Shown here in pieces: positions 14,658-38,036 of a stretch of 57,578 bases of DNA. Each line of letters opens with the position of its first letter. Within the stretch, counting starts at the first letter, position 1. Location of the stretch: positions 1 to 57,578 of the forward strand of contig JAEDMC010000001.1 in NCBI GenBank assembly GCA_016303225.1. The letters are read 5' to 3'. The notes beneath the pieces are model-generated. The model did no database searches, had not been told where the DNA came from, and saw nothing but the letters and a program-made list of their open reading frames with translations. The position numbers and the translations under genes are program-made. Origin of the DNA: Kiritimatiellia bacterium. Lineage in GTDB: Bacteria; Verrucomicrobiota; Kiritimatiellia; RFP12; UBA1067.

Positions 14658-14664
14658 CACCCAT

Positions 14665-14670: not shown

Positions 14671-14676
14671 CCAAAA

Positions 14677-14691: not shown

Positions 14692-14734
14692 CCTTACGCG
14701 TCTTTCCGCGGCGTGATAGGACTGCCGCTCCCGA

Positions 14735-22471: not shown

Positions 22472-23049
22472 TGCAAGCCTCCCCCGAATTTAAGGTCAGA
22501 CGACTCCACAACGGATCCGCCAAATACCTTGATGTAGGAATCGGGCGCCGAGAAGTAGACGCCCTTACCTTCGAATGACGTCTTCCCCTGTGTCACTCTC
22601 GCCGCGCCTTCCGCCCAGCCGCTTTTCGAATTGCGGTCCACAAGGCAATTCTGAGCCACAAGCCGCGCCTCGACGGCACCTCCTTTGGCAAGTTTTCTGA
22701 CTTCGACGTCTTCAGCCCAGACAAAGCCCTCTGCCAGAAAATACTGCGCCCTTCCGGCGTGCACCAGGACCTTCACGGACCCGTCGCCATATGTCTCGAC
22801 GGGAATCGTCACGTTCTCCGCAGGTTCCTTCACCTTCGCGCAACAATTCGTGTAGGCGGACATCAGTCGCTCGGCCTCGCGCGCAAAGAGCTCGCGCTTC
22901 CCATGCCACTCCGCCGAATCGAAGGCATAGGTCGAAGGGATGAGGAATGAGGAATGAGGGATGAGATGGGGAACGAAAAGAGAATACAGCAGGACAAGTG
23001 CGAAAAAATTTCGCACGCGACTCGTTCGCTTGCTCCTAACTATTCTCAT
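22468..23049 (-). CDS. LptC-like membrane-anchored protein
   Basis: 193 aa with an N-terminal TM anchor and a beta-rich body. It lies upstream of lptA with a 4-nt overlap. The assignment rests on position and shape only. Confidence 0.45.
   Translation of the reverse strand: MRIVRSKRTSRVRNFFALVLLYSLFVPHLIPHSSFLIPSTYAFDSAEWHGKRELFAREAERLMSAYTNCCAKVKEPAENVTIPVETYGDGSVKVLVHAGRAQYFLAEGFVWAEDVEVRKLAKGGAVEARLVAQNCLVDRNSKSGWAEGAARVTQGKTSFEGKGVYFSAPDSYIKVFGGSVVESSDLKFGGGLQ
22937..22971. repeat. Heptamer micro-array (gggatga/ggaatga x5) in the LptC-like anchor
   Basis: Sequence: gggatgaggaatgaggaatgagggatgagatgggg. It encodes PHLIPHSSFLIPS. Confidence 0.85.
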
Positions 23050-23055
23050 GCCGCC

Positions 23056-23064
23056 ATTATATCA
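23056..23064 (-). promoter_or_regulatory. Extended -10 TGATATAAT, 6 nt before the lptC-like ATG
   Basis: Minus strand TGATATAATggcggcATG. The IS left end is 47 bp further upstream. Confidence 0.6.
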
Positions 23065-23211
23065 AAAGGAGGCGAAAAATTCCATCCGCCAGAACGCGGA
23101 TCGGTTACCGGCATGGTGATTAATTTCATTCTCGATCCGCCGCGTTCCCATTGGATTTCCGCCCGCCCTTAACAAAAGAGGCGATTTTTGAGATGATATG
23201 CTCGTCCCATT

Positions 23212-24561
23212 TTGGAGCAGGCACATCTCATGAACGGGAAAATCAGGATTCGGCACATCTACAAGGCGACGGAACTCAAGCGGTTCGGCAAGCTCGAAGG
23301 CAAGTACCACCACATGGGCGAAACCCATTCCGGGGGCGACACCATGCGCATTGTCTTCGAGGATGAAAACGGGAAATGGCTGGCGCTGATGGTCTGGGGC
23401 TCGGCCTGCTACCACCTGCGACCGAGGGACGAATACATCGGATGGAACATGGCGCTGCGGCGGGCGCGGCAGAAGCTCGTCCTCAACAACAGGCGCTTCA
23501 CCATCCTCGCAAAGCCCGGAACACACCCGAACCTCGCCTCGCAGTGCCTCGGCCTCGCCTTGCGCGAGCTGCCGCGGATGTGGCAGAGGAAGTTCCACTA
23601 CCGCCCCCTCCTGGCCGAGACGTTCTGCGACATCAACCATTCGCCCGGAACGTGCTACAAGGCCGCGAACTGGATCCCTCTCGGCGTGACCAAGGGCTTC
23701 TCGCGGGTCAACCGGCAGGAATGCGACTTCTACATCCCGAACGACGACCCGAAGACAATCTGGGTCGCGCCCTTCGCCCGCGACGCCGTCGAGCTGCTCA
23801 ACTCCCCGAACCTTCCCGACGAATGCCTGGAGGGCGCGCACTGCGACGCCGACGGGGTTCTCCCCGTCTCGCCGGCACAGGCGGAATCGCTCTACGAGGC
23901 CATGCGCGGGGTCAGGGACTGGCGTGACGACAACAAGTCCATCCCCGCGGCCTCCATGCTGTCGATCGTCGTCATGGCGATGATGAGCGGGGCGAACTCG
24001 GTCAAGGCCGTCTGGAGGTTCGGGGAGCGGCTCACGATGGCCCAGCGCAGGCAACTCTGCCTGAGGCACGACAAGGACAAGTTCGGCAAGCCGCTGAAGG
24101 CATACTTCAAGGTCCCCTCCTACGTCACGTTCTACAAGTTCCTGAAGAAGCTCGACCTCGCCGACTTCGGAGAGAGGCTCAGCGCCTGGCTCCAGTCGCA
24201 GGAAGGGACGCTGCCCCGCAGGCTCGCGCTCGACGGGAAGTTCGTCAAGGAGGTCATGGGCGTCGTCTCGATGGTCGACTGCGAGACGGGCGCGCCCGTG
24301 GCGGTCGCGTCGTCCCGGCGGAAGGAGGGGACGATCGGCGAGTGCGAGCTTCCGAAGGGACAGAAGCTCATCCGCGACCAGGACCTCACCAACGCCCTCG
24401 TCTGCGCGGACGCGCTCCACGGGCAGCAGGACACCGCCCGCGCCATCCTTGACGCGAACGGGGACTACCTGCTGCAGATCAAGGAGAACCAGAAGACGAT
24501 CCTCAGGAACGCGGAGAACGTCGCCAAGGCCCGAGAACCGAACGGCGTCAAAAAAAAGTAG
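23212..24561 (+). CDS. ISAs1 transposase, upstream frame: DUF4338-like N-domain plus DDE_Tnp_1-associated domain plus first part of the DDE domain
   Basis: 449 aa. YHHMGE..LMVWGSACYHLRPRDEYIGW..LNNRRFTIL..LASQCLGLALRELP..LLETF-like..GTCYKAANW is the DUF4338 pattern. DWRDDNKSIPAASMLSIVVMAMMSGANS and LALDGKF..ADALHGQQDTARAIL..GDYLLQIKENQ are the ISAs1 pattern. The frame ends at a TAG right after the A8 run. Confidence 0.75.
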   Translation: MEQAHLMNGKIRIRHIYKATELKRFGKLEGKYHHMGETHSGGDTMRIVFEDENGKWLALMVWGSACYHLRPRDEYIGWNMALRRARQKLVLNNRRFTILAKPGTHPNLASQCLGLALRELPRMWQRKFHYRPLLAETFCDINHSPGTCYKAANWIPLGVTKGFSRVNRQECDFYIPNDDPKTIWVAPFARDAVELLNSPNLPDECLEGAHCDADGVLPVSPAQAESLYEAMRGVRDWRDDNKSIPAASMLSIVVMAMMSGANSVKAVWRFGERLTMAQRRQLCLRHDKDKFGKPLKAYFKVPSYVTFYKFLKKLDLADFGERLSAWLQSQEGTLPRRLALDGKFVKEVMGVVSMVDCETGAPVAVASSRRKEGTIGECELPKGQKLIRDQDLTNALVCADALHGQQDTARAILDANGDYLLQIKENQKTILRNAENVAKAREPNGVKKK

Positions 24562-25016
24562 AGTCAAACCGCAGCCGGATCGAAACGCGCATCACCCGCA
24601 TCTACGCGCTCGACGATCCCGTCCAACTCGGAATGTTCGGCGCACACACGCTCGTCCGGACATGGCGGAAGACCGAACACCTGGCGGGAAAGCTCAAGGG
24701 CACGACGAGCATGGAAATCTCCTATCACGCCTCGTCGGTCCGCATCAACGCACGGCATGACGCCGGGTTCTTCGCGGACGGTGTGCGCGGCGAATGGAGC
24801 GTGGAGAAGTACCACGCGCGGAGGGACGGGACATACTGCGAAGACATCCGCACCCGTCGTTGCGACGAGAACGTGACTGGCGCCCTGATGCTCGCGAGAA
24901 CCCTCGCGCTCTACTTCTTCGCGAAGAGCGGCATGTCCAACTGCCAGGCGTTCAAGGAGAAAATGCAGGCAAATCCAGACATGGTATTCGACCTCGTCAT
25001 GGGAAAGGAGGTCTAA
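24558..25016 (+). pseudogene. ISAs1 transposase C-terminal part in the -1 frame (frameshift at A8 run 24550-24557)
   Basis: The -1 frame reads through the A8 run: ..KKVESNRSRIETRITRIYAL..EISYHASS..GEWSVEKYHARRDGTYCEDIRTRR..ALMLARTLALYFF. These are ISAs1 C-terminal motifs. The ORF track lists only 24633-25016. Confidence 0.7.
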
Positions 25017-25031
25017 AGTAAATCACCATGG

Positions 25032-25886
25032 TTACCGGTCAAAAGCCTCTAGTATCGCAGGCGTAACATCCTGCAGGGAATTCACCCGATCGCGAATCCA
25101 CTCCTCTCCTGGACCAAAGACTATGAACGGCACGGGGTTGCGCGTGTGACCGCGCTCGCCAATCGACTCGATGTTTCCGTGATCGGCCGTCATCACGAGC
25201 GTGATGCCCGCCGCCTCGGTGCACCGTACAAGCGCGGCAAGGAACCGATCGTAGACCCGCAGGACCGCGCAGGCGCGCGCATAGTCCATCGAATGCCCGG
25301 AAACGTCCGTCTGAAAAAACTCATACAGTGTGAAGTCATTGGCGAGCGCCAGTCGAAAGAGGTGTTCCGCAGACCTCTGCGGTGTGACGACCGGAATGTC
25401 AGGATAGCGATCTTGAATCGTTTCCCGCGTCAGGTCCTGCATCAGCGCCCGATCAGACATCAGATCTTCCGCAAGGGAAATCGATTCCGGAACCGTTAAC
25501 GCCATCACAGTTGTCACCGACTTGAATCGCCGCGCAGCAATCTCGCTGACATCATCCACGAGATACGCATCGGCAAAGCGCACGCGCTTGTTGCGTTTGC
25601 GCAATTCCATGAACAGATTGTTGTCTTCAATGATCTTGCGAAGCTCCTGCCCGGGAAAACCCTCGCAATGCCGCCCAATTGCCGCCGAACAGTTCACCCC
25701 CGTGAACATCGTCGCCTGCCCTGTAGCAGACTGAGGCAACCCTTCGACACCCAAACAAGCGTCGATTGGCTTTGAGTGACACTCAATCAACCGCCAAAGC
25801 GTCGGACACACTTCTTTGTTCAATGGATTGTCCGCTGCCGGTTCTCGAAGCCCCACCCCGTCTATGAATAGATAAATGACTTTCAA
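25032..25886 (-). CDS. Alkaline-phosphatase-superfamily metalloenzyme (cofactor-independent phosphoglycerate mutase / phosphopentomutase-like)
   Basis: 284 aa. Motifs: LFIDGVG, QSATGQATMFTG, TADHGN. TTG start. Its TAA stop lies inside the IS target duplication. Confidence 0.65.
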   Translation of the reverse strand: MKVIYLFIDGVGLREPAADNPLNKEVCPTLWRLIECHSKPIDACLGVEGLPQSATGQATMFTGVNCSAAIGRHCEGFPGQELRKIIEDNNLFMELRKRNKRVRFADAYLVDDVSEIAARRFKSVTTVMALTVPESISLAEDLMSDRALMQDLTRETIQDRYPDIPVVTPQRSAEHLFRLALANDFTLYEFFQTDVSGHSMDYARACAVLRVYDRFLAALVRCTEAAGITLVMTADHGNIESIGERGHTRNPVPFIVFGPGEEWIRDRVNSLQDVTPAILEAFDR

Positions 25887-25894
25887 GTTCCAAA

Positions 25895-25900
25895 ATTATA
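25895..25900 (-). promoter_or_regulatory. -10 box TATAAT, 8 nt before the TTG start of the metalloenzyme gene
   Basis: Minus strand ggTATAATtttggaacTTG. Confidence 0.5.
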
Positions 25901-26098
25901 CCACAAAAATGATAAAATAAGCAAGTAGGCTTTCATGTTGATAATCATTTGATAATTGTAGACAGAATTTCACAACTTCTTCTTGACAAACTCCATTTTA
26001 GCTTTAAATGATTGATTTTATTCACAATAGTATAATTTCGTGACTTGATTGCCGCATAATGTTATATTGTAAATTGTTCATAATCAAGTTAACAATTT

Positions 26099-26107
26099 TG
26101 GTATAAT
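26099..26107 (+). promoter_or_regulatory. Extended -10 TGGTATAAT, 11 nt before the mnmG ATG
   Basis: TGGTATAATatcttcgtcttATG. Confidence 0.55.
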
Positions 26108-26118
26108 ATCTTCGTCTT

Positions 26119-27897
26119 ATGAAAAACTACTGCTTGGACTCTTTCCCAGTGATTGTTGTTGGTGGCGGACATTCCGGCGCTGAAGCAGCACTAGCAGCTT
26201 CGCGTATGGGTATTCGCACTCTTCTTATAACGGCATGCAAAAATGCTCTAGCACGAATGCCCTGTAATCCTTCCATTGGAGGTTTGGCAAAAAGTCATCT
26301 GGTTTATGAGTTGGATGCTCTTGGTGGTGAGATGGGACGCAATGCTGATGCTACTGCCCTTCAGTCTAAAATACTCAATCGAAGCAAGGGCCCGGCTGTA
26401 TGGGCAACACGATGCCAATGTGCAAAGACAGAATATACTGTAAGAATGCAGCAGGTCATCAACCAGCAAGATTCTTTAACCGTTCTCGAAGATTCCGTCA
26501 TTTCACTTATCATCAAAAACGATCATATAATTGGTGTACAGACCGATTCTCATGGATCTATTTTTTCACAAGCTGTCATCATCACTTCAGGCACATCCTT
26601 GCGAGGACGCGTATGGATAGGCAAACATTGCACCGACTCTGCGGGAGACAATAGACCTTCAATCAATCAGCTTTCCTTCTCTCTTGCTGAAAAAGGATTT
26701 GATTTGATTCGTCTCAAAACTGGTACACCTCCTCGACTTAAAGCTTCAAGTTGCAATTTTTCTCAATGCATCCCTCAAGAGGGTGAACATCCGCATCCGT
26801 TGTTCCACGTGGAACAAGATCTCGATCATGACCATGTTCCACGTGGAACATTACCCGAATTTCCCTGTTGGATGACCCATACAACTGAAAAAACTCATCA
26901 AATTATAAGAGAAAACCTGACTTGTTCAGCATTGTATGGAGGTGAAATCACAGGAACCGGAGTAAGATATTGTCCATCAATAGAAGATAAAATTGTTCGC
27001 TTTACTTCAGCGCAACAACATCATGTCATGCTGGAACCAGAAGACTCTTCTGGACAAATCATTTATCCAAATGGGTTGAGTTGTTGTTTGCCAAAGACAA
27101 TACAAGAACAAATGGTACATTCAGTACCAGGTTTAGAAACAGCAGAGTTTCTTGCATACGCTTATGCAATTGAATATGACGGAATTAATTCTCTTGAACT
27201 GAAGCATACACTAGAATCAAAACGAATAAACGGCCTATTCTTTGCTGGACAAATTAACGGCACAACTGGATATGAAGAGGCCGCTGCACAGGGAATTATG
27301 GCAGGCATCAATGCAGCACTACTTATTAAGGAAAAAGAGCCTTTGATTCTCAGTCGGCAAGATGCCTATATTGGTGTAATGATTGATGACCTAGTCACAA
27401 AAGGTACAGATGAACCCTATCGTATGTTTACGAGCCGAGCTGAAAGACGTCTAATACTCAGACAGGATAATGCTCGCTACCGTTTACTTGATGCAGCAAC
27501 AAAAGCCGGTATTCTTACTCCGAAAATTCTCGATGCAAGAAAACGCGAATTTGAATTTATTAACTCTTGCGTTGAACATAATCTCAATCCTAAATTGCAA
27601 CCTGAATTCAAGACATTTGCAAATGCAAAAATGTTAATTCAAGAAATAGATATTATACGACATTACCAGCCTTATATTGAACAAGAAAAGAAAGCAGCCG
27701 AAAAAGCAAAACTGGATGAATCAATCTGTCTGCCAAAATGGTTGGATTATGACAAGTGTACAGCTGTTAGATATGAAAGCCGCGAAAAGCTCAAAAAATA
27801 CCGGCCGGAAACACTTGCACAAGCTGGACGAATACCAGGTGTCAATCCAGCCGATGTAGCTGTCTTAGCGATTATTATTAAGCGGGGACATCATTAA
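26119..27897 (+). CDS. mnmG: tRNA uridine 5-carboxymethylaminomethyl modification enzyme MnmG (GidA)
   Basis: 592 aa. FAD motif [14 protein letters not shown], then RLKTGTPPR and YCPSIEDK. Confidence 0.95.
26800..26817. promoter_or_regulatory. parS site 1 (18-bp perfect palindrome)
   Basis: ttGTTCCACGTGGAACaa. The 16-bp core TGTTCCACGTGGAACA is the perfectly symmetric form of the parS consensus TGTTNCACGTGAAACA. Confidence 0.8.
26834..26851. promoter_or_regulatory. parS site 2 (18-bp perfect palindrome)
   Basis: atGTTCCACGTGGAACat, centred 34 bp from site 1 and also inside the mnmG coding sequence. Confidence 0.8.
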
Positions 27898-27985
27898 AGT
27901 TATTAACAAAAATTGTTGATATGTTGATGATATAAGTAGACTTCTTCCTTTGCCATTCGTCAGTTGATTTTTGTATAATTAGGCA
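27898..27985. promoter_or_regulatory. DnaA-box cluster overlapping the dnaA promoter
   Basis: Boxes: ttattaaca 27900-27908, tgttgatat 27914-27922, tgttgatga 27922-27930, agttgattt 27962-27970. TATAAT at 27974-27979. Confidence 0.65.
27974..27979 (+). promoter_or_regulatory. -10 box TATAAT, 6 nt before the dnaA GTG (27986)
   Basis: ttgTATAATtaggcaGTG. Confidence 0.5.
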
Positions 27986-29419
27986 GTGTTAATAACTAGG
28001 TGGATTTCGAATATGAATGAAACGATAGACATCACGTCGAAGGAAATGTGGGAACGCGCGAAGGAAATTTATCTTTCCACATTGCATTCGGTAGAGGAGA
28101 AGAGTCAGGTCGATCGATACCTGTCAATGATTCTTTCCGTTTCGCGCAAGGGAGATAACTTCATCGTGTTGACTTCAAACGCGTATGCAGCCGACTATCT
28201 CAAAGACAATTATTCGGAACGTTTGCGAAAGTGCTTGGAACTTGTAGCCGATGGAGAAAAAATCGGTTTGGAATTCAAGTATGATGAAACGGCAAAGCCT
28301 GCGATCATCATGCCGCATAACCAAATGGGCAGACAGTCTTATTCAAATGCAACGTCGACCTTTATATCGACGATGCCGTTGAATGAAGAATACACGTTTG
28401 AAGAATTCGTTCGAGGGCCGTCCAACAGCTGGGCATTGGCGGCAGCTCAAGGCGTTGTTTCAAATCCAGGAAAAAGCGGTTACAATCCGCTGTTCATTCA
28501 TGGTGGAACTGGCCTTGGAAAAACACATCTGATGCAAGCCATCGGTAACGAACTGAAGCGACGCAACGCCAATATGGCAATCTGCTATCTGACGGCGGAA
28601 ACATTTCTGAATGAATATGTAAACGCATTGAAGAACGGTCAAATTGAAACGTTCAGAAACCGTTACCGCACAATTGACTTATTGATGGTAGACGATGTGC
28701 AGTTTTTGCAAAAGGGCAAACAATTTCAGGAAGAGTTCTTCAATACATTTTGCGCCCTCTGGCAGGCTCATAAGCAAATCGTGATGACTTCAGATGTTGC
28801 GCCTAAAAACTTGCCGGCAGTGGAAGAAAGGCTCATTTCACGCTTTGAAGGGGGCATGGTTCAGGAAATAGAATCTCCAAATTACGAGACAAGACTGGCC
28901 ATTTTGCGTAAGAAATCTGAATCAATGAAACCGGCAATACCAGATTACGCCCTGGAATTCATTGCTGATACCATTAAAAGCCATGTTCGTGCAATGGAAG
29001 GTGCATTACATCGTGTCAGCATCTTTAGATCTATGGACCCAACAGAAAACCTGACTAAAGAAACACTGTCAAAACTGCTGAAGGATTTCATAGAAAAAGA
29101 GCAGACTCTCAAAAAGCTGAACATCGAAGAAATACAAGCTGTCGTAGCCAAAAAATATTCAGTAACAATAACGCAAATTCTTTCAGCCGAAAGAACCCAG
29201 TCAATTGTTACTCCACGACAGTTAGCAATGTACATTGCCAGAAAATTCACAACTAAAAGTTTACCGGAGATTGCAAAGCTCTTTGAAAAAACTCATGCCA
29301 CTATTATTCATGGTGTCAAAAACATCGAAAAGAGACTTGACGTAGAATCCGATCTCAAGGCAACCTTAGCCGAAATACTTTCCGAATTCGGCTATAATCT
29401 CTCTGATAAAATGGACTGA
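27986..29419 (+). CDS. dnaA: Chromosomal replication initiator protein DnaA
   Basis: Motifs: GGTGLGKTHLMQAIGN, LMVDDVQFL and C-terminal DNA-binding ..RQLAMYIARKFT..SLPEIAKLF.KTHATIIHG. GTG 27986 lies 6 nt after the -10 box; the ATG at 28013 (MNETIDI) is an alternative start. Confidence 0.95.
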   Translation: MLITRWISNMNETIDITSKEMWERAKEIYLSTLHSVEEKSQVDRYLSMILSVSRKGDNFIVLTSNAYAADYLKDNYSERLRKCLELVADGEKIGLEFKYDETAKPAIIMPHNQMGRQSYSNATSTFISTMPLNEEYTFEEFVRGPSNSWALAAAQGVVSNPGKSGYNPLFIHGGTGLGKTHLMQAIGNELKRRNANMAICYLTAETFLNEYVNALKNGQIETFRNRYRTIDLLMVDDVQFLQKGKQFQEEFFNTFCALWQAHKQIVMTSDVAPKNLPAVEERLISRFEGGMVQEIESPNYETRLAILRKKSESMKPAIPDYALEFIADTIKSHVRAMEGALHRVSIFRSMDPTENLTKETLSKLLKDFIEKEQTLKKLNIEEIQAVVAKKYSVTITQILSAERTQSIVTPRQLAMYIARKFTTKSLPEIAKLFEKTHATIIHGVKNIEKRLDVESDLKATLAEILSEFGYNLSDKMD

Positions 29420-29685
29420 TGAGATGCTAACAACATGAAGACAAAGTGAATAAAAAGGTTTCACAAAAAATTGAATTGTCAACAGGCGAATTTGAAATCA
29501 ACATCGGTTTAAAACAATCTATTCAAAGAGTCAACAGACCAGACAAGCTCAAACTCCAATGAAATCAATCTAAAAATGAGTTGTCAACAGAATCAACATT
29601 CCTAATAATAATAATTTGTCCTACTTTATCTAACAGCTAATATTTGATACAATCAAATAACGAGTTAATAAGAAGGAGAATAAAA
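29420..29685. promoter_or_regulatory. Candidate oriC core: five same-orientation DnaA boxes, (TAA)4 DnaA-trio-like run, AT-rich segment
   Basis: Boxes: ttgtcaaca 29475-83, aaatcaaca 29495-503, gagtcaaca 29528-36, ttgtcaaca 29581-89, gaatcaaca 29590-98. Next comes tcc, then taataataataa at 29603-29614, then AT-rich sequence up to the dnaN promoter. Confidence 0.65.
29645..29653 (+). promoter_or_regulatory. Extended -10 TGATACAAT upstream of dnaN (32-nt leader with SD AAGGAG)
   Basis: TGATACAAT at 29645, SD at 29672-77, ATG at 29686. Confidence 0.5.
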
Positions 29686-30780
29686 ATGAAATTAAAAATA
29701 GTACGGTCTAAATTTTTGGAGGGACTGAAGTCAGTTCAGAACATCGTTGCCGGGAAAGGCTCGTTGCCGATTCTTCAGAATGTTCTTCTTGAAGTCGGCG
29801 GCGGTGAAATCAAGATGACGACAACTGACTTAGACATTTCAATTAAGGCGAGTTGTGGATGTGAAGTCGAGGAGAGTGGGAGCACGACATTACCCGTTAA
29901 ACTGCTTTTCAATGCCATCACGAAAGTCGCTGAGGGTGAGGTGGAGATTGAAGTTGACGAAAAGGAAAGGGCTTCAATCAGCGCCGGCAATGCGCGATAC
30001 AAACTGGTAGGTTTGCCTGAAAAGGAATTTCCTCGATTGCCCAAGGATGAAGACGCTTATGTCTATACGGTTTCTCAGCAGGTGTTCAAGGAAATGCTGA
30101 AGAAAGTGTCGTATGCGGCAAGTCAGGACGATACGCGCAGAACGCTGAAGGGCGTGTTGATGAGCTTTAAGGACAACAAGCTCACAATGGTGGCGACAGA
30201 TGGGCGCAGACTGGCGTTGGTTGAAAATGAAGTTGAATTTTTGAAAGATGCCGAGAAGGACATCGTTCTTCCATCAAAGGCGGTGGCTGAACTTCAAAGA
30301 TGCCTTTTGGGAGAAGGAGACCTTTCATTAATCGTACAGAAATCTCAGATTTGCTTCAAGCTTGACAACGTGATGATCTATTCGAAGGTCATAGATGACG
30401 CCTATCCAAATTATAAGCAGGTCATACCGAAGGAAACTGCTGAACACATCACCGTGGATCGTCAATTGATGTTGGATGCACTTGATCGGGCAAGCGTGAT
30501 GACGATGGACGAAGCGCATTCGACCAAACTCATCTTTGAAAGCGGCAAACTGACTGTTACATCAGCAGCATCGGACATCGGTGAAGCAAAGGATGTTGTT
30601 CCAATCAAATATGCAGGGGAAAAAATAGAGATCATGTTCAATCCCTCTTATGTGATGGATCCGCTTAAGGCCATTGACGACGATGAAATCACGTTCAATG
30701 TCAATGACGAACATTCTCCCGCCGTCATCAAGTGTTCTATTCCGTTTCTGTATGTGCTGATGCCTCTGCGCATCAGCTAA
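29686..30780 (+). CDS. dnaN: DNA polymerase III subunit beta (sliding clamp)
   Basis: MKLKIVRSKFLEGLK... three-domain clamp length. A canonical SD AAGGAG lies 8 nt upstream. The ORF-track TTG at 29644 is rejected. Confidence 0.95.
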   Translation: MKLKIVRSKFLEGLKSVQNIVAGKGSLPILQNVLLEVGGGEIKMTTTDLDISIKASCGCEVEESGSTTLPVKLLFNAITKVAEGEVEIEVDEKERASISAGNARYKLVGLPEKEFPRLPKDEDAYVYTVSQQVFKEMLKKVSYAASQDDTRRTLKGVLMSFKDNKLTMVATDGRRLALVENEVEFLKDAEKDIVLPSKAVAELQRCLLGEGDLSLIVQKSQICFKLDNVMIYSKVIDDAYPNYKQVIPKETAEHITVDRQLMLDALDRASVMTMDEAHSTKLIFESGKLTVTSAASDIGEAKDVVPIKYAGEKIEIMFNPSYVMDPLKAIDDDEITFNVNDEHSPAVIKCSIPFLYVLMPLRIS

Positions 30781-30781
30781 A

Positions 30782-32029
30782 GTGAAAATGAAGATCTGGA
30801 CAGATAAGAACTTTCCCATAATCATCTCCTGTGCCAAGCAATTGTCCCGCTGGACCGAGGCGGAAGTGCTTGATATGGGCTATAAGCCCATTGAGGTGAC
30901 AGAAAACACGGTGGTTGTTCGCGGTGACATGCGCGACATGATGAGGCTGAATCTCTTTCTCAGGACGGCGCATCGGGTTCTGGTTCCGCTTCTGAGGACG
31001 ACTTGCAGAAACATACGCGACCTCTATCAGGCCGTGCTGTCAATCGACTGGGAAAACTTGCTGGAAGCAGACGGATACTTTTCCGTGTCATCGGTTGTTC
31101 ATAACTATACGATCCGCGACACACGTCTGCCTTCTCTCCATACCAAGGATGCGATTGCAGACCGTATGCGCGAGAAGTGTCAGCGACGTCCTGATTCCGG
31201 AGGAGAGAACAAAGGGGCTGCCGTTTTCGTCTATTGGGAAAAAGACGAAGCGATCATTTACCTTGATACTTCGGGAGAACCTCTTTCGAAACGTGGCTAT
31301 CGCAAGATACCAGGTTCTGCACCGATGCAGGAAACGCTTGCCGCAGCTTGCATCATGGCTATGCACTGGGACTCCAAGACGCCGTTTCTCTCACCGATGT
31401 GCGGTAGCGGTACACCTGCCATTGAGGCGACGATGATTGCGATGAACCGAGCCCCAGGTGCCCTGAAGGGGCATTTCGCATTTCAGTCAATCAAAGGATA
31501 CGGACGAATCATTCCAGGAGAATCCGCGCCAACGGTTGCTCCTCGCCAGCACTCGGGCGCATCGCCCGAACAGATCTGGAAAGAAATCGTGTTAGAAGCA
31601 AAATCACATGAGACGACGGATAACCTTCCGCCGATCATCGCAACCGACATCTCGCCTGAAGCGGTCGAAAACGCACATACGAATGCGATTGCCGCCGGTG
31701 TTGCTCCTTACATTACCTTCAAGGCTTGTGACTTTGCCGAAACTCCCATTCCAGAAGCGAAGGGGTGCATCTTCTTCAATCCCGAATATGGCATTCGTCT
31801 GGGGAATCCAAAGGAATTGGCGCCAGTCTACGAGCGCATTGGAACGTTTCTGCATGAAAAGTGTCCGGGATGGATGGGTGCGCTCATCACCGGAAGCCAG
31901 GAGCTTTCGCATCTCGTCAATCTTTACTACAAGACGCGCATCCCGTTTTTCAACGGACCGATCGACTGTCGGCTGTTCCTCTACGAGGGATGCGAACTGA
32001 AAGGTCAGAATATCAATGGAAATGAGTGA
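30782..32029 (+). CDS. THUMP-domain class I SAM-dependent RNA methyltransferase (RlmL/UPF0020-like)
   Basis: 415 aa. Motifs: PMCGSGTPAIEA, DISPEAVENA, FFNPEYGIRLG (NPPY-type). Confidence 0.75.
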   Translation: MKMKIWTDKNFPIIISCAKQLSRWTEAEVLDMGYKPIEVTENTVVVRGDMRDMMRLNLFLRTAHRVLVPLLRTTCRNIRDLYQAVLSIDWENLLEADGYFSVSSVVHNYTIRDTRLPSLHTKDAIADRMREKCQRRPDSGGENKGAAVFVYWEKDEAIIYLDTSGEPLSKRGYRKIPGSAPMQETLAAACIMAMHWDSKTPFLSPMCGSGTPAIEATMIAMNRAPGALKGHFAFQSIKGYGRIIPGESAPTVAPRQHSGASPEQIWKEIVLEAKSHETTDNLPPIIATDISPEAVENAHTNAIAAGVAPYITFKACDFAETPIPEAKGCIFFNPEYGIRLGNPKELAPVYERIGTFLHEKCPGWMGALITGSQELSHLVNLYYKTRIPFFNGPIDCRLFLYEGCELKGQNINGNE

Positions 32030-32651
32030 GTTTCTCAATCGCACGCAAGATAAAGGTCCTGCTGTGCGTACACCTGAAGAAGTTCCCGTTGAGGAAGAGC
32101 TGGACGTGCAAAAGGCCGTCATCGAATCTCTGGCAGCCGACAAGGCCGAACAGGACGAACGTATTGGTTTGCTGACGAAGGAAAACGAGTCTCTGAAATT
32201 TGAAATTTCACGTCTCAAATCTCAAATTTCAGATTACGAATCAAAAATTGGAGAATTGAAGGTTGCGTTGGCCAAGGTCGGCGATGTCCTTGCCGCGAAT
32301 GCCGAAGGCGAAGCATCCAACAAAGTTGCTTTGATTGATCGTGATCCGGAATTGAACGATCGTTTCCCTGGAGAGACGCGCGATCACGTTCTGGAAGTCA
32401 TCAAGGAGGCACGCGAGGAAGCCGAAAAAGATGGCCGCATCCGCCGTGCCCAGATTCTTGAAAGTGTCCTTGTCGCCAATGTACCGCTGGGTAACTTGAC
32501 CAAAAAGCGCGAGGCGCTCAAAAAGTTTTTTGCAGAAAACGCCAATATCCTTTCTGGTCCAGTGATTGCAGAACTTGAAAAATGCGGGATTAGCCATAAA
32601 AATGGCGATCAATATTTACTGCCGGACGAAATTATCAAACGGACTTATTGA
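32016..32651 (+). CDS. Coiled-coil protein, function unknown
   Basis: 211 aa. Heptad-rich segment LLTKENESLKFEISRLKSQISDYESKIGELKVALAKV. No family recognised. Confidence 0.6.
   Translation: MEMSEFLNRTQDKGPAVRTPEEVPVEEELDVQKAVIESLAADKAEQDERIGLLTKENESLKFEISRLKSQISDYESKIGELKVALAKVGDVLAANAEGEASNKVALIDRDPELNDRFPGETRDHVLEVIKEAREEAEKDGRIRRAQILESVLVANVPLGNLTKKREALKKFFAENANILSGPVIAELEKCGISHKNGDQYLLPDEIIKRTY
32192..32238. repeat. Stutter micro-array (gaaattt x2 / ctcaaat x2) with a 10-bp internal inverted repeat, inside the coiled-coil gene
   Basis: Sequence: tctgaaatttgaaatttcacgtctcaaatctcaaatttcagattacg. ctgaaatttg (32193-32202) pairs with caaatttcag (32223-32232). Confidence 0.8.
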
Positions 32652-32772
32652 TATTTATCAACAATCTTATCAACCTATGTTGATATTATTGTTAATATGT
32701 TGATAAATCTGTTGATAGAGTTGATAACTAGCCCCTTGTCAGTTGATAAAATAAAGTCCATAATATGCGCCC
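32652..32772. promoter_or_regulatory. Densest DnaA-box cluster (7 boxes in about 95 bp) overlapping the promoter of the XRE gene
   Basis: Forward boxes: TTATCAACA 32655-63 and TTATCAACC 32667-75. Reverse boxes: tgttgatat 32678-86, tgttgataa 32698-706, tgttgatag 32710-18, agttgataa 32719-27 and 32741-49. Confidence 0.7.
32759..32764 (+). promoter_or_regulatory. -10-like CATAAT, 8 nt before the XRE gene GTG
   Basis: CATAATatgcgcccGTG, immediately after the 7-box DnaA cluster. Confidence 0.4.
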
Positions 32773-33255
32773 GTGACAAAGTTGAGTCCAGAGATTTGCC
32801 TGAAGATTAAGGAAGCTCGCCGTGCGGCGAAGCTTTCACAGAGCATTGTCGCAGCAGAGGTTGGCTGTAAACAATCGGCCCTTTCAATGTTCGAACAGGG
32901 TGATGGGACGAAGCTTAACGAAGAAGTTGTCAACAAGCTGGCTCAGAGGTTTGGCATTTCGTTGACGGAGAAAGAGCCTGAACCGATTCGGGAGGTGCCG
33001 ACGAATTTTGCGGTGCCTTCGGAAATCCGAGTGCATGGTTTTTGTCCAAACGCACACTGTCCGTCGAACAAGATCTACGAAGTCGACGGAAGGACCTATG
33101 CCTTGCCGAACCGACTGACAGCGGATCCAGTCGGTGGGAAGTTTTGCGCGCTTTGTGGAGAGATTCTTGAAAAACGCTGTCCCAACTGCGGAGCGCCTTT
33201 GCATGACGGAGCGATCTGTTCAATCTGCGGCGACCCCTATGTTTCCATTCGGTAG
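32773..33255 (+). CDS. XRE-family HTH protein with a C-terminal multi-Cys zinc-ribbon domain
   Basis: 160 aa. HTH: IKEARRAAKLSQSIVAAEVGCKQSALSMFEQG. Cys pairs: CPNAHC, CALCG, CPNCG, CSICG. GTG start. Confidence 0.75.
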   Translation: MTKLSPEICLKIKEARRAAKLSQSIVAAEVGCKQSALSMFEQGDGTKLNEEVVNKLAQRFGISLTEKEPEPIREVPTNFAVPSEIRVHGFCPNAHCPSNKIYEVDGRTYALPNRLTADPVGGKFCALCGEILEKRCPNCGAPLHDGAICSICGDPYVSIR

Positions 33256-33276
33256 TCCCCCGACATCCGTTTTTTT

Positions 33277-33285
33277 TGATATAAT
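33277..33285 (+). promoter_or_regulatory. Extended -10 TGATATAAT upstream of the kinase gene (25-nt leader)
   Basis: Preceded by a T8 run. aaagga SD-like sequence before the ATG at 33311. Confidence 0.55.
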
Positions 33286-33310
33286 CATCACTTGAAAGGA
33301 ATTTCGAGAG

Positions 33311-34342
33311 ATGTCTAACAGAACTTATTCGCAGGATGAACTCTCCGCCGTACTCAAGGGCTTCGGCATCACAGATCAGACGGATGTGAGCCGCTATGGC
33401 TCAGGACACATCAACGACACGTTCAAGGTTGAGACGAAGCGGGGTGTCCGTTACATTTTGCAGCGCGTCACCGACGCCTTCGACAAGGACATCCTCAAGT
33501 CGAACATCATCCGCGTCACTAACCATCTGAAGTCCAAGGGCGTGAAGACGCTCGACGTCCTCGGGTACGAGAATCCGTGGCGTCTTTATGCCTTCCTCGA
33601 GGGCTATACGTCAGTCGACGTCATTACGGATCCCGCGCAGGCGGAGCTCGCGGCCGGTGCGTTCGCTGCGTTTCAGAATGCGCTTGCGGATCTGCCAGAA
33701 CCGCAGCTTCTCCCCGTCATTCCGAAGTTCCACGATACGGTCGACCGCATTCGGCTTCTTGATGAGGCGGCTGCGGCGGACATAAAGGGCCGCAAGGCGT
33801 CTGTGCAGGCGGAGCTTGATTTCGTGAATCGCCGTCGCGAAGAGGCGGCTAAGATCGTGACCATGATGGCGAAGGGCGAGATTCCCGAGCGGATTACGCA
33901 CAACGACACGAAGATCAACAACGTGATGCTTGCGCCCGACGGTACGAACGTTGTCATCGACCTTGACACAACGATGCCGGGTTCGGCGCTCTACGACTTC
34001 GGTGACATGGTGCGCACCTCGTCCGCGGCGGCGGCCGAAGACGAGAAGGACCTATCGAAGGTCTATTCGAAGAAGAAGTACTTCGAGGCGCTCGTGAAGG
34101 GCTATCTCGCGCAGGCGAAGTTCCTCACCGACGCGGAGAAGGCGAACCTCGCATTTTCGGGCCGTCTCATCACGCTCACGATCGGCATCCGTTTCCTCAC
34201 CGACTATCTTGCCGGCGACACCTATTTCCACACGGCCTACGAAGGCCATAACCTTGTCCGCTGCCATACGCAGTTCAAGATGGTCGAGTCGATGGAGGCC
34301 CAGGCCTCCGAGTACGAGGCAATCGTCCGGAAGTATGCCTAA
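33311..34342 (+). CDS. APH/ChoK-fold phosphotransferase, N-acetylhexosamine 1-kinase-like
   Basis: 343 aa. Motifs: GSGHINDTF, ITHNDTKINNVM, IDLDT. Confidence 0.7.
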   Translation: MSNRTYSQDELSAVLKGFGITDQTDVSRYGSGHINDTFKVETKRGVRYILQRVTDAFDKDILKSNIIRVTNHLKSKGVKTLDVLGYENPWRLYAFLEGYTSVDVITDPAQAELAAGAFAAFQNALADLPEPQLLPVIPKFHDTVDRIRLLDEAAAADIKGRKASVQAELDFVNRRREEAAKIVTMMAKGEIPERITHNDTKINNVMLAPDGTNVVIDLDTTMPGSALYDFGDMVRTSSAAAAEDEKDLSKVYSKKKYFEALVKGYLAQAKFLTDAEKANLAFSGRLITLTIGIRFLTDYLAGDTYFHTAYEGHNLVRCHTQFKMVESMEAQASEYEAIVRKYA

Positions 34343-36719: not shown

Positions 36720-38036
36720 ATGGTAGTCTGGGGTGATACCATTGCGGCGATCGCCACCGCGCCTGGGCGCGGTGGCGTTGCTGTCGTCAGGGTCAGCGGG
36801 AGTGAGGCGTTCAGCATCGCTGAACGCCTCACAAGAATCAGGGATCAGGGACCGGGGATCAGGGTCGGCAGAATCGCAAATGTCGACGAAGGGGTCATCC
36901 TGTTCTTCAAAGGTCCTCACAGCTATACCGGCGAGGACGTGGTGGAGTTCCAGTGTCATGGCGGCACGGTGACGCCGCGGCGGGTGCTGGAGGCGTGTCT
37001 TGCGACCGGTGCGCGGCTGGCGCGGCGCGGCGAGTTCACCGAGCGCGCGTTTCTGAACGGCAAGCTCGACTACGATCAGGCGGAATCTGTCCTCGATCTC
37101 GTCGATGCGAAGACCGCTCGTGCGGCAGACGCTGCGCTGGAGGGACTTTCCGGACGCAAACGGCGCGAGCTTAAGTCGTTGTACGATTCCGCTCTCGACC
37201 TGTCGACGCGGCTCGAGCACGCGCTTGACGTTGACGAAGGCGAGCTCGCGGACGATTACGTCCGCGAGCTTGGATCTCAGATCTCAGATCTCAGATCCCG
37301 GATTTCAGGGGCATTGCGTCGGGCGAACGAGGGGAAGATCCTGCGGGAGGGCGCGCTCGTGGTGCTGGCCGGGCCGCCGAACGCCGGCAAGTCGTCGCTG
37401 ATGAACGCGCTGCTGGAGGAGAACCGCGCGATCGTCAGCGACATCCCCGGCACGACGCGCGACTCAATCGAAGAGTGGCTGGACCTCGACGGCTGGCCGA
37501 TCCGCCTCGTCGACACCGCAGGTCTCCGCACGTCGCAGGACGAGGTCGAAGGCGAAGGCGTCCGTCGTGCCGAAGACCTGATTGCGAAGGCCGATCTCGT
37601 CCTTTGGTTGAGAAACAGTGAAGCTGGCGAACCGCTTAACGGCTCAATTGCTCAATTGCTGAACCGCTTAACCTCTCAACCGCTTAATCTCTCAACCAAG
37701 TGCGATCTCGTCCGCGGACCTGGTCTCAACGTCTCCGCGAAGACGGGTGAGGGTCTTGACGAGCTGAAGCGGGAGATTGTCGCGAAGCTCAAGGAAAAGG
37801 CCGAAACGAGCGTTGTCGATTTGCCGGAAGGCAACTTCGTCGCCCTTCGCGAGGCACTGACGTTGCTGGAAACGGGCGAAGGACAGGAGACGGGAGAGGG
37901 ACGACAAGAAGAGGATCTCGTCTTGACGGCCAATGCCGTGCGCGCCGCCGCCGAGCGCTTGGGCGCGGCAATCGGCGTAACGTATTCGAGTAATCTGCTG
38001 GACAATCTTTTTTCCCGTTTCTGCGTTGGAAAATGA
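36720..38036 (+). CDS. mnmE: tRNA modification GTPase MnmE (TrmE)
   Basis: DTIAAIATAPGRGGVAVVRVSG, G1 GPPNAGKSSLMN, DTAG, and the C-terminal CVGK tetrapeptide. Carries four low-complexity inserts. Confidence 0.93.
   Translation: MVVWGDTIAAIATAPGRGGVAVVRVSGSEAFSIAERLTRIRDQGPGIRVGRIANVDEGVILFFKGPHSYTGEDVVEFQCHGGTVTPRRVLEACLATGARLARRGEFTERAFLNGKLDYDQAESVLDLVDAKTARAADAALEGLSGRKRRELKSLYDSALDLSTRLEHALDVDEGELADDYVRELGSQISDLRSRISGALRRANEGKILREGALVVLAGPPNAGKSSLMNALLEENRAIVSDIPGTTRDSIEEWLDLDGWPIRLVDTAGLRTSQDEVEGEGVRRAEDLIAKADLVLWLRNSEAGEPLNGSIAQLLNRLTSQPLNLSTKCDLVRGPGLNVSAKTGEGLDELKREIVAKLKEKAETSVVDLPEGNFVALREALTLLETGEGQETGEGRQEEDLVLTANAVRAAAERLGAAIGVTYSSNLLDNLFSRFCVGK
36804..36868. repeat. 12-bp perfect hairpin followed by a gggatca-type micro-array in the mnmE 5' region
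   Basis: gaggcgttcagc (36804-15), atc, gctgaacgcctc (36819-30), then aatcagggatcagggaccggggatcagggtcgg (36836-68). Confidence 0.85.
37272..37311. repeat. Heptamer micro-array gatctca x3 (+gatcccggatttca)
   Basis: Exact copies at 37273, 37280 and 37287. Encodes SQISDLRSRIS in mnmE. Confidence 0.9.
37629..37697. repeat. Composite micro-array (gaaccgcttaac x2, gctcaatt x2, ctctcaac x2)
   Basis: Encodes EPLNGSIAQLLNRLTSQPLNLS in the mnmE G-domain region. Confidence 0.85.
37869..37905. repeat. 18-nt-period repeat (acgggngarggr x2)
   Basis: Encodes ETGEGQETGEGR near the mnmE C-terminus. Confidence 0.7.

Follow-up and report, generated by a model that had tools for sequence, protein, structure and literature searches.

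Why should a few kilobases of a chromosome that carry the essential genes mnmG, dnaA, and dnaN be so much poorer in G+C than the DNA on either side of them? The locus lies in a contig from a gut Kiritimatiellae bacterium (the window, i.e., the whole stretch of 57,578 nucleotides analyzed here), for which an initial annotation had described a graded low-GC trough centered on the origin and had offered two readings: horizontal replacement of the origin module, or an origin-centered mutational or selection gradient. Sliding-window GC and third-codon-position GC (GC3) confirmed that approximately 8 kb at the putative replication origin, including these three genes, has a much lower G+C content than other chromosomal DNA. 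More specifically, GC was 0.443 in the trough core (positions 25700 to 33300) versus 0.616 in the remainder of the window, and the minimum among 1-kb windows (0.383, at 27001 to 28000) corresponded to z = -9.5 against 1-kb windows located outside 25 to 34.5 kb (mean GC 0.618, sd 0.025, minimum 0.562).

The same contrast was evident at third codon positions. GC3 was 0.29 in mnmG, 0.45 in dnaA, 0.51 in dnaN, 0.58 in a THUMP methyltransferase gene, 0.46 in a gene for a 211-aa hypothetical protein, and 0.56 in an XRE-family gene, whereas the 35 other genes spanned 0.64 to 0.91 (e.g., 0.77 for an APH-family kinase gene and 0.88 for an antiporter gene), without overlap between the two ranges (Mann-Whitney p = 1e-4). 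The proposed switch of third positions to A/T between mnmE (0.72) and mnmG was thus borne out. All 18 of the 18 degenerate amino-acid families took part in the shift, rather than certain codon boxes only, and intergenic DNA in the trough was AT-rich as well (spacer GC 0.27 to 0.30). At mnmG 4-fold sites (A 0.39, C 0.19, G 0.08, T 0.34), GC skew on the plus strand was -0.38 versus about +/-0.05 in the flanks. The description of the trough as graded held for its shoulders but not for its interior. In the left shoulder (21935 to 25699, minus strand, disregarding an inserted insertion sequence [IS]), GC3 recovered from 0.64 in a metalloenzyme gene through 0.65 in LptC and 0.75 in LptA, reaching 0.80 in LptB, and in the right shoulder, formed by the APH-family kinase gene (33301 to 34342, plus strand), it climbed from 0.66 to 0.84 along the gene. 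The interior resembled gene-wise plateaus more than a smooth gradient, and GC3 jumped from ~0.27 where mnmG ends to 0.58 where dnaA begins.

The gene identifications were right according to NCBIfam, with the adjacent dnaA (TIGR00362, 454 bits) and dnaN (TIGR00663, 303 bits) each scoring above its cut-off. The conserved block is limited on the left by the metalloenzyme-family (phosphomutase-like) gene (25032 to 25886, minus strand), which diverges from mnmG across a spacer (25887 to 26118, GC 0.27) where gene strand switches and which holds two TGGTATAAT boxes (25895 to 25903, minus strand; 26099 to 26107, plus strand) and one DnaA-box-like site (25936). It is followed, on the plus strand, by mnmG (26119 to 27897), with the lowest GC3 of the window; by a spacer (27898 to 28012, GC 0.30) with a dnaA promoter-like site and TGTTGAT repeats (27913 to 27933); and by dnaA (28013 to 29419, 468 aa), in which GC3 drops to 0.32 to 0.36 toward the 3' end. 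The dnaA-dnaN spacer (29420 to 29685, GC 0.29), within which the trough midpoint falls (~29.5 kb), carries five TCAACA-type boxes, all on one strand (29477 to 29598), and then a DnaA-trio-like TAATAATAATAAT (29603 to 29615); it is the probable unwinding site. Downstream lie, also on the plus strand, dnaN (29686 to 30780, 364 aa), the THUMP/RlmL-like RNA methyltransferase gene (30788 to 32029), and the gene for the conserved 211-aa coiled-coil protein (32016 to 32651). A feature at 32192 to 32238 that had been called a micro-array turned out to be a heptad-like repeat plus an inverted repeat inside this coiled-coil gene. A further spacer (32652 to 32772, GC 0.30) with at least four TTGATA/TATCAA box-like repeats precedes the last conserved member of the block, an XRE-family regulator gene (32773 to 33255, plus strand) encoding helix-turn-helix and double-zinc-ribbon domains.

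Several features identify the trough region as the putative chromosomal origin region. At 26 kb gene orientation switches completely, with only minus-strand genes to its left (the inserted IS excepted) and only plus-strand genes to its right, and the cumulative GC-skew minimum lies at 27 to 27.5 kb. Of 15 DnaA-box-like sites in the window, 13 fall within 25.9 to 32.9 kb. The exact TTATCCACA motif (<=1 mismatch) was not enriched across the whole window, because the local box variant is of the TCAACA type. Three box clusters, located, relative to the 3' end of dnaA, at -1.5 kb, 0 to +0.25 kb, and +2.75 to +3.5 kb, were kept across 58 to 63 species, while a permuted control motif gave a flat profile; in the window, the mnmG-dnaA spacer and the spacer upstream of the XRE gene represent the first and third of them. 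The trough takes in all three clusters.

A compositional contrast of this kind could by itself reflect a chimeric metagenome assembly in which a high-GC contig was joined to a low-GC one. We consider such a mis-join practically negligible as an explanation, as 25 independent contigs of the species (18 to 59 kb, from various studies and assemblers, 99 to 99.6% identical) cover the trough together with its left edge, and almost all of them the right edge as well; relatives show the same structure, and hundreds of indexed assemblies carry a near-identical DnaA. The earlier argument for long residence and against a chimera is therefore sustained. None of these 25 assemblies (L001-L005, L093-L102, and L103-L112) contains the IS, an element with ISAs1-like DDE_Tnp_1_assoc and DruA-like domains (23112 to 25029, plus strand) flanked by a 9-bp target duplication (GGTTACCGG) and carrying terminal inverted repeats, with a GC3 of 0.91. 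It is strain-specific and lies outside the phenomenon, 0.7 kb from the trough edge.

The proximity of this IS to a contiguous block of atypical GC and codon usage had been taken as a hint of horizontal replacement of the origin module; in this reading, the donor would be low in GC and the composition still unameliorated. Against this reading stands, besides the private nature of the IS, the distribution of the block. The arrangement of the metalloenzyme gene diverging from mnmG-dnaA-dnaN-THUMP-hypothetical-XRE, together with the trough, recurs in ~60 gut/rumen Kiritimatiellae species, across which DnaA identity falls smoothly from 93% down to 43%; of the 63 Kiritimatiellae loci examined, a large majority have it at the same location, and its presence is not patchy. 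In a 58-species meta-profile, GC was depressed from -4 to +3.5 kb, with a trough depth of >0.05 in 49 species and >0.10 in 20, compared with a mean depth of 0.022 at 18 non-Kiritimatiellae control loci, none of them from high-GC bacteria. Divergence of the trough genes follows that of GC-normal neighbors: identity to L006 was 93% for DnaA and 97% for DnaN versus 95% for the metalloenzyme and 96% for APH, and protein distance matrices of trough genes correlated positively with that of the metalloenzyme gene (rho 0.43 to 0.59). The closest named DnaA comes from a Kiritimatiellae genome, and no tRNA gene, integrase, or att repeats were found, the private IS being the sole mobile element. Moreover, when the window species was compared with L009 or with species still further removed, identity at 4-fold sites was 0.27 to 0.38 (random expectation, 0.25 to 0.29). 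As synonymous sites are thus randomized between species beyond the closest relative, a composition acquired by transfer could not have survived passively, and even an ancestral transfer could not account for the present composition. We therefore regard horizontal transfer as extremely improbable. The recurrence of the dip at one location in dozens of relatives shows instead that the trough is inherited and actively maintained, i.e., a lineage trait at steady state and neither foreign DNA nor a product of assembly. Of the two initial readings, it is the origin-centered gradient that the data favor; a lineage trait was also an outcome that the initial annotation itself had named as refuting transfer.

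We next ask whether the trough belongs to the genes or to their position. Codon tuning of individual genes, through regulatory AT-ending codons, or low expression with relaxed codon selection would fit the plateau-like profile by gene, and one gene-specific component does exist: mnmG GC3 was below that of dnaA in 36 of 38 species regardless of orientation or distance, and mnmE, which lies outside the trough, was also 0.1 to 0.19 below its neighbors. Thus, mnmG carries an extra effect atop the positional one. As an account of the whole trough, however, gene-specific tuning is very unlikely, because every codon family shifts rather than just those decoded by MnmEG-modified tRNAs, intergenic DNA is affected too, and the low-expression IS transposase gene has a GC3 of 0.91. 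Composition also changed with location. An antiporter gene situated 5 to 6 kb outside the block had a GC3 of 0.76 to 0.88, whereas an antiporter gene placed between mnmG and dnaA matched dnaA (e.g., 0.53/0.54, 0.65/0.66, and 0.63/0.62). The gradient is also obeyed by unrelated genes, whichever strand they are on; in L021, GC3 formed a monotonic V over 19 genes (0.66 to 0.12 to 0.54). GC3 of mnmG was still low in 9 to 10 species in which this gene is inverted, and GC3 of the block genes covaried among species (rho 0.64 to 0.88). The dnaA of L052, which lacks boxes, dnaN, and a nearby strand switch, had no trough, which for dnaA counts against gene-specific tuning. These results show that the effect is positional, being set by distance from the origin rather than by gene identity.

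To separate mutation from fixation, we considered third-position polymorphism among 22 strains, picked by DnaA protein allele, with alleles polarized by minor-allele frequency and with small counts. In the flanks (GC3 0.81), singletons comprised 41 GC-to-AT versus 9 AT-to-GC changes (p = 6e-6 against 1:1), implying an equilibrium GC of ~0.48. In the trough (GC3 0.46), the corresponding counts were 25 and 14 (not significant), with an implied equilibrium of ~0.32; window mnmG (0.29) and dnaA/dnaN of L021 (0.12 to 0.14) lie at or below the estimated equilibrium. Among polarized differences between sister species, the implied equilibrium was 0.42 in troughs and in flanks alike; deep troughs were balanced (289:293), and shallow troughs and flanks showed a GC-to-AT excess. 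These data suggest that the trough is near an AT-biased mutational equilibrium and that the flanks are kept up by a GC-favoring fixation bias. Given the GC3 of the IS transposase gene, ordinary translational selection is not the force that raises GC. Decay of linkage disequilibrium within 1 kb and four-gamete incompatibility were the same in trough and flanks, at low power and with metagenome consensus sequences that can scramble haplotypes, so a recombination cold spot was not seen. The ratio pi/thetaW was 0.74 in the trough versus 0.98 in the flanks (22 strains), and common synonymous variants were ~2.8-fold rarer in the trough (16 strains), both being low-power estimates from consensus assemblies.

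The explanation that we prefer, and to which we give an even chance, is that the origin sits inside a vertically inherited domain whose composition stays AT-rich at steady state because a GC-favoring bias is largely ineffective there. The domain extends ~4 kb to each side of the dnaA-dnaN spacer, with shoulders out to 7 to 9 kb. Mutation would be AT-biased throughout the genome of the organism, and a weak GC-favoring fixation bias (selection on GC, GC-biased conversion, or GC-biased repair) would keep most third positions at ~0.8 to 0.9 GC. Within a few kilobases of oriC this bias would largely fail, leaving synonymous and intergenic positions to settle at the equilibrium set by mutation, ~0.3 to 0.5 GC. 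GC-to-AT input about twice as high near the origin may contribute, and mnmG, as well as mnmE wherever it is located, would undergo an additional gene-specific GC3 drop of ~0.1 to 0.2. It is this balance of mutation and fixation bias that we infer, rather than observe. The gene-wise steps inside the trough, and the GC3 of window mnmG and of L021 dnaA/dnaN at or below the estimated equilibrium, speak against it.

Two other forces could act at the same place. Local mutagenesis linked to initiation might raise C-to-T changes near oriC, either through single-stranded exposure (with the helicase ahead of replisome assembly, or in abortive initiations) or because a less accurate polymerase copies the first few kilobases. 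GC-to-AT singletons per GC site were indeed 2.1-fold commoner in the trough (p = 0.007), with AT-to-GC singletons per AT site unchanged, and since a fixation bias of the inferred size barely alters singleton counts, some truly higher local mutation input is plausible. The distance-dependent V profile of L021, the exaggerated skew of replication type at the 4-fold sites of mnmG (below zero in 27 of the 29 species with mnmG co-oriented with dnaA), and the ~1.3- to 1.6-fold higher 4-fold divergence of trough genes from L006 point the same way, and error-prone Pol I, which leaves a kilobase-scale mutational footprint beside the ColE1 plasmid origin, may offer a parallel. As the main cause, mutagenesis is nonetheless unlikely: by calculation, a two-fold GC-to-AT rise with unchanged fixation bias predicts a GC3 of ~0.68, not the observed 0.46; per-site differences between sister species in the trough relative to the flank were not consistently higher (2.6x, 0.6x, 0.44x, and 0.89x), nor did the implied equilibrium differ between the two; nucleotide diversity was lower in the trough (pi 6.8 versus 10.8 per kb); and L045 and L046 have the same origin architecture and almost no coding trough. 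Alternatively, selection opposing the genome-wide GC-raising force might favor easily melted or protein-bound AT-rich DNA around the origin, as a broad low-stability or nucleoid-protein-binding domain that serves initiation or its control. Such selection would fit the coincidence of the trough with the span of the conserved box clusters, the spacers below the estimated equilibrium, the GC3 of mnmG and the L021 core at or below it, and the survival of the domain through complete synonymous turnover. Trough-wide GC3, however, is at or slightly above mutational equilibrium, so no AT-favoring force is needed, and in the trough derived GC-to-AT alleles did not segregate at frequencies above those of AT-to-GC ones. 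Spread over the synonymous sites of 8 to 18 kb, the per-site strength would be extremely weak, and depth spans 0 to 0.21 among species sharing one origin layout. To our knowledge, other high-GC bacteria make do with AT-rich elements of a few hundred base pairs only. We judge this selection to be quite unlikely.

It is conceivable, though we are doubtful, that in these bacteria replication initiation itself marks the surrounding base composition in a heritable way. A zone of a few kilobases at oriC would receive extra C-to-T damage at each initiation or escape GC-biased repair or conversion, and a V-shaped GC3 well, with a depth varying by species, would result. If true, this would constitute a previously undescribed class of origin-centered substitution gradient and a natural experiment separating mutation from fixation bias in bacterial GC content.

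The trough may be compared with several known systems. Like a genomic island, it is a contiguous block of deviant GC and codon usage with an IS nearby; unlike one, it consists of essential, vertically inherited genes shared by ~60 species, has graded edges without island hallmarks, and has a maintained rather than donor-inherited composition. With the ColE1 Pol I footprint it shares a kilobase-scale, distance-dependent effect beside an origin, but that footprint was demonstrated on plasmids by means of an engineered error-prone polymerase, whereas polymorphism here indicates at most ~two-fold extra mutation input. Bipartite origins flank dnaA in Bacillus subtilis and Helicobacter pylori, and our locus resembles origins and unwinding elements of this type in its position at dnaA-dnaN, its DnaA-box clusters on both sides of dnaA, and its AT-rich spacer with a trio-like TAA repeat adjoining the last box. 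The AT-rich origin elements known to us are noncoding and tens to a few hundred base pairs long; here, in contrast, AT enrichment covers ~8 kb (up to ~18 kb in L021), includes third codon positions of 6 to 7 genes, and is accompanied by a third box cluster 3 kb downstream. Within-genome GC3 heterogeneity is debated in terms of GC-biased gene conversion versus recombination-enhanced selection (PMC11879095), and the reported effects amount to a few GC3 points between gene classes. Our reading likewise opposes AT-biased mutation to a GC-favoring fixation bias of varying strength along the genome, but the drop here is of 35 to 55 GC3 points at one fixed place, with no detectable local recombination deficit. 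Replication-linked structure usually takes the form of GC skew and of GC3 falling toward the terminus, with AT enrichment over hundreds of kilobases. Recombination, which is positively correlated with GC, usually peaks near Ori (PMC11879095). Here, too, composition is tied to replication landmarks and is affected most strongly at synonymous sites, but sign and scale are opposite, the trough being a sharp AT-rich well of a few kilobases at the origin itself.

Sliding-window GC and per-gene GC at third codon positions (GC3) bore out the low GC that the initial annotation had reported for mnmG, dnaA and dnaN, and the trough is both real and striking. The window has an overall GC of 59.4%, and the mean of the 1-kb windows lying outside 25-34.5 kb is 0.618 (sd, 0.025; minimum, 0.562), whereas the lowest 1-kb value within 25-34.5 kb is 0.383 (z = -9.5); GC is 0.443 for 25700-33300 versus 0.616 for the remaining window. 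More specifically, GC3 is 0.29 in mnmG, 0.45 in dnaA, 0.51 in dnaN, 0.58 in the THUMP methyltransferase gene, 0.46 in a 211-aa coiled-coil gene and 0.56 in an XRE regulator gene, relative to 0.64-0.91 in 35 other genes of the window; it is 0.77 in the APH-type kinase gene right of the XRE gene and 0.88 in the antiporter gene beyond. The identities originally given to mnmG, dnaA, dnaN, mnmE and the THUMP methyltransferase (RlmL-like) agree with NCBIfam. Codon positions 1 and 2 of the trough genes shift much less than position 3, all 18 of 18 degenerate amino-acid families shift jointly, and the four intra-trough spacers have a GC of 0.27-0.30. The left shoulder comprises LptA (GC3, 0.75), LptC (0.65) and the metalloenzyme gene (0.64); on the right, GC3 climbs from 0.66 to 0.84 along the kinase gene. 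Within the trough, the GC3 profile is nearer to gene-wise plateaus than to a smooth slope.

Sequence indexes list this DnaA protein, or a near-identical variant of it, for hundreds of contigs from gut metagenomes, those of pigs included. We compared 25 further contigs of the species (L001-L005, L093-L102 and L103-L112), originating from different studies and assemblers, and found the same gene order over the trough edges, 99-99.6% identity and the same GC profile. The trough is not an artefact. The insertion sequence (IS) at 23112-25029, lying between an LptC-like gene and the metalloenzyme gene, is ISAs1-like, with terminal inverted repeats, a 9-bp target duplication (GGTTACCGG), DruA-like N-terminal and DDE_Tnp_1_assoc domains, and a reading frame broken into two ORFs (23212-24561 and 24633-25016). 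It is found in 0 of the 25 other assemblies, the window strain being the sole carrier among the 26 compared; thus, its proximity to the left edge, previously read as a hint of transfer, is irrelevant to the trough. Its transposase gene has a GC3 of 0.91, indicating that the GC-raising force of the genome acts on a mobile element too.

Genes to the left of 26 kb are all on the minus strand (the inserted IS excepted) and those to the right are all on the plus strand, and cumulative GC skew reaches its minimum at 27-27.5 kb. A local DnaA-box variant, [AT][AGT]TCAACA, has 13 of its 15 window sites within 25.9-32.9 kb. The dnaA-dnaN spacer, at which the trough has its midpoint (~29.5 kb), carries five same-strand box-like sites (29477-29598) followed by TAATAATAATAAT, and the spacer upstream of the XRE gene carries at least four. 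Across 58-63 related species, box-like motifs concentrate at three fixed places (the spacer between dnaA and dnaN and the sequences preceding dnaA and the XRE gene), whereas a permuted control motif gave a flat profile. Together, these features mark the region as the probable chromosomal origin, and the trough extends over mnmG and all three box clusters. The canonical DnaA box TTATCCACA (at most one mismatch) is not enriched over the whole window (5 found versus 4 expected), the local boxes being TCAACA-type. A perfect DnaA-trio run of at least four TAA/TAG units occurs in just 6 of 62 dnaA-dnaN spacers, so this feature is weakly conserved. The third box-like cluster (32652-32772 in the window; in relatives, at +2.75 to +3.5 kb counted from the 3' end of dnaA) is clade-conserved, 3 kb downstream of dnaA and directly upstream of a conserved gene for an XRE-HTH plus double-zinc-ribbon regulator; it may belong to the origin, titrate DnaA or act as an operator for the regulator itself. 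Rfam, tRNA and promoter/terminator scans added nothing to this picture.

Separately, the extended -10 motif TGNTATAAT occurs 13 times in the window versus 0.21 expected (minus strand, 2261, 6871, 10401, 14665, 17693, 23056 and 25895; plus strand, 26099, 33277, 38034, 41572, 46899 and 51262). In at least eight cases it ends just 5-12 nt 5' of a start codon (e.g., tgatataatgagcctATG and tggtataatatcacgcctATG), a spacing which implies that many genes would be transcribed as leaderless mRNAs. dnaN differs, having a classical AAGGAG ribosome-binding site.

Two readings of the trough had been proposed, i.e., replacement of the origin module by horizontal transfer or an origin-centred gradient, and comparison with relatives decides between them. 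Among named DnaA proteins, the nearest (84% identity) belongs to a Kiritimatiellae genome, and the gene block with its trough also occurs on contigs with DnaA at 93%, 85% and 84% identity. Among ~60 gut and rumen Kiritimatiellae loci (one genome per species; DnaA identity from 77% down to 43%), the order metalloenzyme gene, mnmG-dnaA-dnaN-THUMP-(hypothetical)-XRE is kept and the outer flanks vary. When species are aligned at the dnaA 3' end, mean GC is 0.07-0.16 lower from -4 kb to +3.5 kb. We scored depth as the difference between distal GC and the GC found within 2 kb of the 3' end of dnaA; 49 of 58 species scored above 0.05, and 20 of 58 above 0.10; the deepest trough is that of relative L021 (0.212), followed by the window species (0.186), and the mean is 0.022 in 18 non-Kiritimatiellae loci from the same scan (all low-GC genomes). 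Inside the clade, dnaA GC3 spans 0.14-0.94, and GC3 of the block genes co-varies between species (rho, 0.64-0.88). Relative to L006, trough-gene identities (DnaA 93%, DnaN 97%, THUMP 94%) match those of GC-normal neighbours (metalloenzyme 95%, APH 96%, antiporter 92%); relative to L013, DnaA is 76-77% identical, PtsI 77% and HprK 87%, and protein distance matrices correlate positively. Identity at 4-fold sites is 41-60% between the window species and L006, and 0.27-0.38 against L009 and more distant relatives, where 0.25-0.29 is expected at random. Third positions have thus turned over completely, many times, inside the clade while the trough has stayed; wherever the genes first came from, the trough is a steady state that is being maintained. 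Accordingly, horizontal transfer is rejected in favour of the origin-centred gradient, with a trough shared by relatives and a composition that depends on position. Four public records titled Muribaculaceae, Clostridiales bacterium CCNA10, Clostridium sp. CAG:138 and Limosilactobacillus gorillae (L022, L046, L067 and L070, respectively) carry a Kiritimatiellae-type origin block with the same synteny and a DnaA 44-66% identical; an error of labelling or binning is probable for these contigs or bins.

Rearrangements separate position from gene identity. The antiporter gene has flank-level GC3 (0.76-0.88) where it lies 5-6 kb right of dnaA (window species, L006 and L034), and GC3 equal to that of dnaA in 11 species of a more distant subclade in which it lies between mnmG and dnaA (0.53/0.54, 0.65/0.66, 0.63/0.62 and 0.70/0.64, among others). 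Likewise, the composition of the metalloenzyme gene follows its position when moved to the right edge (L021 and L036), and mnmG inverted in 9-10 species still has low GC3. The most extreme trough, on the 19.7-kb L021 contig (CALCDB010000112.1), shows GC3 falling and rising again as a monotonic V across 19 genes of both strands: 0.66, 0.61, 0.59, 0.61, 0.47, 0.48, 0.40 and 0.38 on the left arm; mnmG 0.31, dnaA 0.14, dnaN 0.12 and THUMP 0.15 in the core; and 0.21, 0.22, 0.31, 0.28, 0.34, 0.40 and 0.54 on the right arm (contig ends, 0.54-0.66; dnaA-dnaN spacer GC, 0.12). Shoulders are also graded in L017, L036, L041 and L054. In L052 (JAEDMN010000018.1), dnaA (48% identity; GC3, 0.94) follows a DnaB-like gene within an array of co-directional genes, and its surroundings have no DnaA boxes, dnaN, mnmG, AT-rich spacer or trough; dnaA apparently does not adjoin the origin in this lineage. 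L045 and L046 have box clusters with almost no coding trough, so the strength of the effect is species-specific. GC3 is lower in mnmG than in dnaA in 36 of 38 species (mean difference, -0.14), and mnmE, outside the trough, lies 0.1-0.19 under its neighbours. Hence, the trough is positional, with a gene-specific extra for mnmG superimposed. Codon tuning to MnmEG-dependent tRNAs is ruled out since every codon family shifts, as is transcription-linked deamination at mnmG, the coding strand being short of G, not C; comparison of replication-linked and gene-linked skew using inverted mnmG had a mixed outcome.

Both MnmEG subunits evolve fast. mnmE (36720-38036; GC3, 0.72 versus 0.82-0.88 for neighbours) has 73% amino-acid identity to L006 versus 92-96% for its neighbours, and contains an 8-bp tandem repeat (AACCGCTC x 8.5; 37630-37697); MnmG is the fastest-evolving block protein (84% versus 93-97%). 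Constraint on both subunits may be relaxed in this GC3-rich lineage.

Polymorphism was assessed at third positions of 22 strains aligned over 21.4 kb, a sample of metagenome consensus sequences from strains chosen by DnaA protein allele that yields small counts, with alleles polarised by minor-allele frequency; L006 was unreliable as an outgroup, its 4-fold sites being about half saturated. At compositional equilibrium under mutation alone, GC-to-AT and AT-to-GC singletons are expected at 1:1. We observed 41:9 in the flanks (GC3, 0.81; p = 6e-6 versus 1:1; implied equilibrium GC3, ~0.48) and 25:14 in the trough (GC3, 0.46; not significant; implied equilibrium, ~0.32). The flanks thus stand far above the mutation-input level and need a GC-favouring fixation bias, and the trough is close to mutational equilibrium. 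With these values, a rough two-allele calculation puts the scaled bias at ~1.5-2.2 for the flanks and ~0-0.6 for the trough. Polarised differences between sister species imply an equilibrium of 0.42 (all sites), equal in troughs and flanks; the two directions of change balance each other in deep troughs (289:293 and 14:21), and there is a GC-to-AT excess in shallow troughs and flanks. GC-to-AT singletons per GC site are 2.1-fold commoner in the trough (p = 0.007), with AT-to-GC singletons per AT site the same; if mutational, this rise would bring GC3 down to just ~0.68, about one-third of the observed drop, and sister-species divergence has no consistent excess in troughs. Trough diversity is lower and shifted to rare variants (pi, 6.8 versus 10.8 per kb; pi/thetaW, 0.74 versus 0.98). 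At low power, no recombination cold spot was seen: LD decays within 1 kb throughout, and four-gamete incompatibility is uniform, although that test is saturated everywhere and so uninformative. Among the 22 strains, the metalloenzyme gene (25032-25886) is almost devoid of synonymous polymorphism, with a single SNP across its 282 third positions (pi, 0.3 per kb versus 6-22 per kb for neighbours), which looks like a very local recent sweep adjoining the origin.

The best-supported explanation is that GC-raising fixation bias fails locally around oriC, which would expose AT-biased mutation there, possibly assisted by extra origin-proximal GC-to-AT input. Such a failure could have several causes: linked selection acting on the origin and the dnaA-dnaN genes might reduce the local effective population size, the region might escape a GC-biased process of repair or conversion, or selection for low duplex stability might oppose the bias. 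The trough bears on a long-standing and still debated question, namely which force (selection, or biased gene conversion or repair) keeps many bacterial genomes GC-rich when mutation is AT-biased in all of them: one chromosome holds, side by side, DNA kept at GC3 ~0.85 and DNA relaxed to ~0.3-0.5, in dozens of species and at differing depths. Public gut metagenomes contain this species in abundance, so that read-level population genetics could relate fixation bias, mutation bias and recombination to the distance from oriC.

In practice, tools that detect foreign DNA from its composition will report the origin region as an island, and contigs of this kind may be put in the wrong bin when binning relies on composition. 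Gene callers whose training reflects the GC-rich bulk produce wrong starts and strands within the trough, inconsistencies attributable to its atypical composition. In L003, L004 and L093-L112 (locus coordinates 14004-15243), the XRE gene is called at 160 or 122 aa from an identical ORF, and the 211-aa gene is swapped for an antisense call in some of these strains. Truncation of the XRE gene in many strains is ruled out, as the ORF is intact and start choice differs between gene callers.

In high-GC bacteria outside the clade, dnaA regions are not known to dip by more than a few GC points. The literature searched held no account of a coding GC trough centred on the origin, be it for Kiritimatiellae or elsewhere. 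A survey of 145 species found recombination usually highest near Ori and positively correlated with GC (PMC11879095), so an AT-rich origin well is contrary to the usual trend. The trough is regional compositional heterogeneity in a new form, lineage-wide, steady-state and origin-centred: known AT-rich origin elements are non-coding and at most a few hundred bp long, whereas the trough includes coding DNA; known compositional islands are foreign DNA, whereas the trough is a lineage-wide steady state; and the known ori-ter GC3 trend is opposite in sign and much larger in scale.
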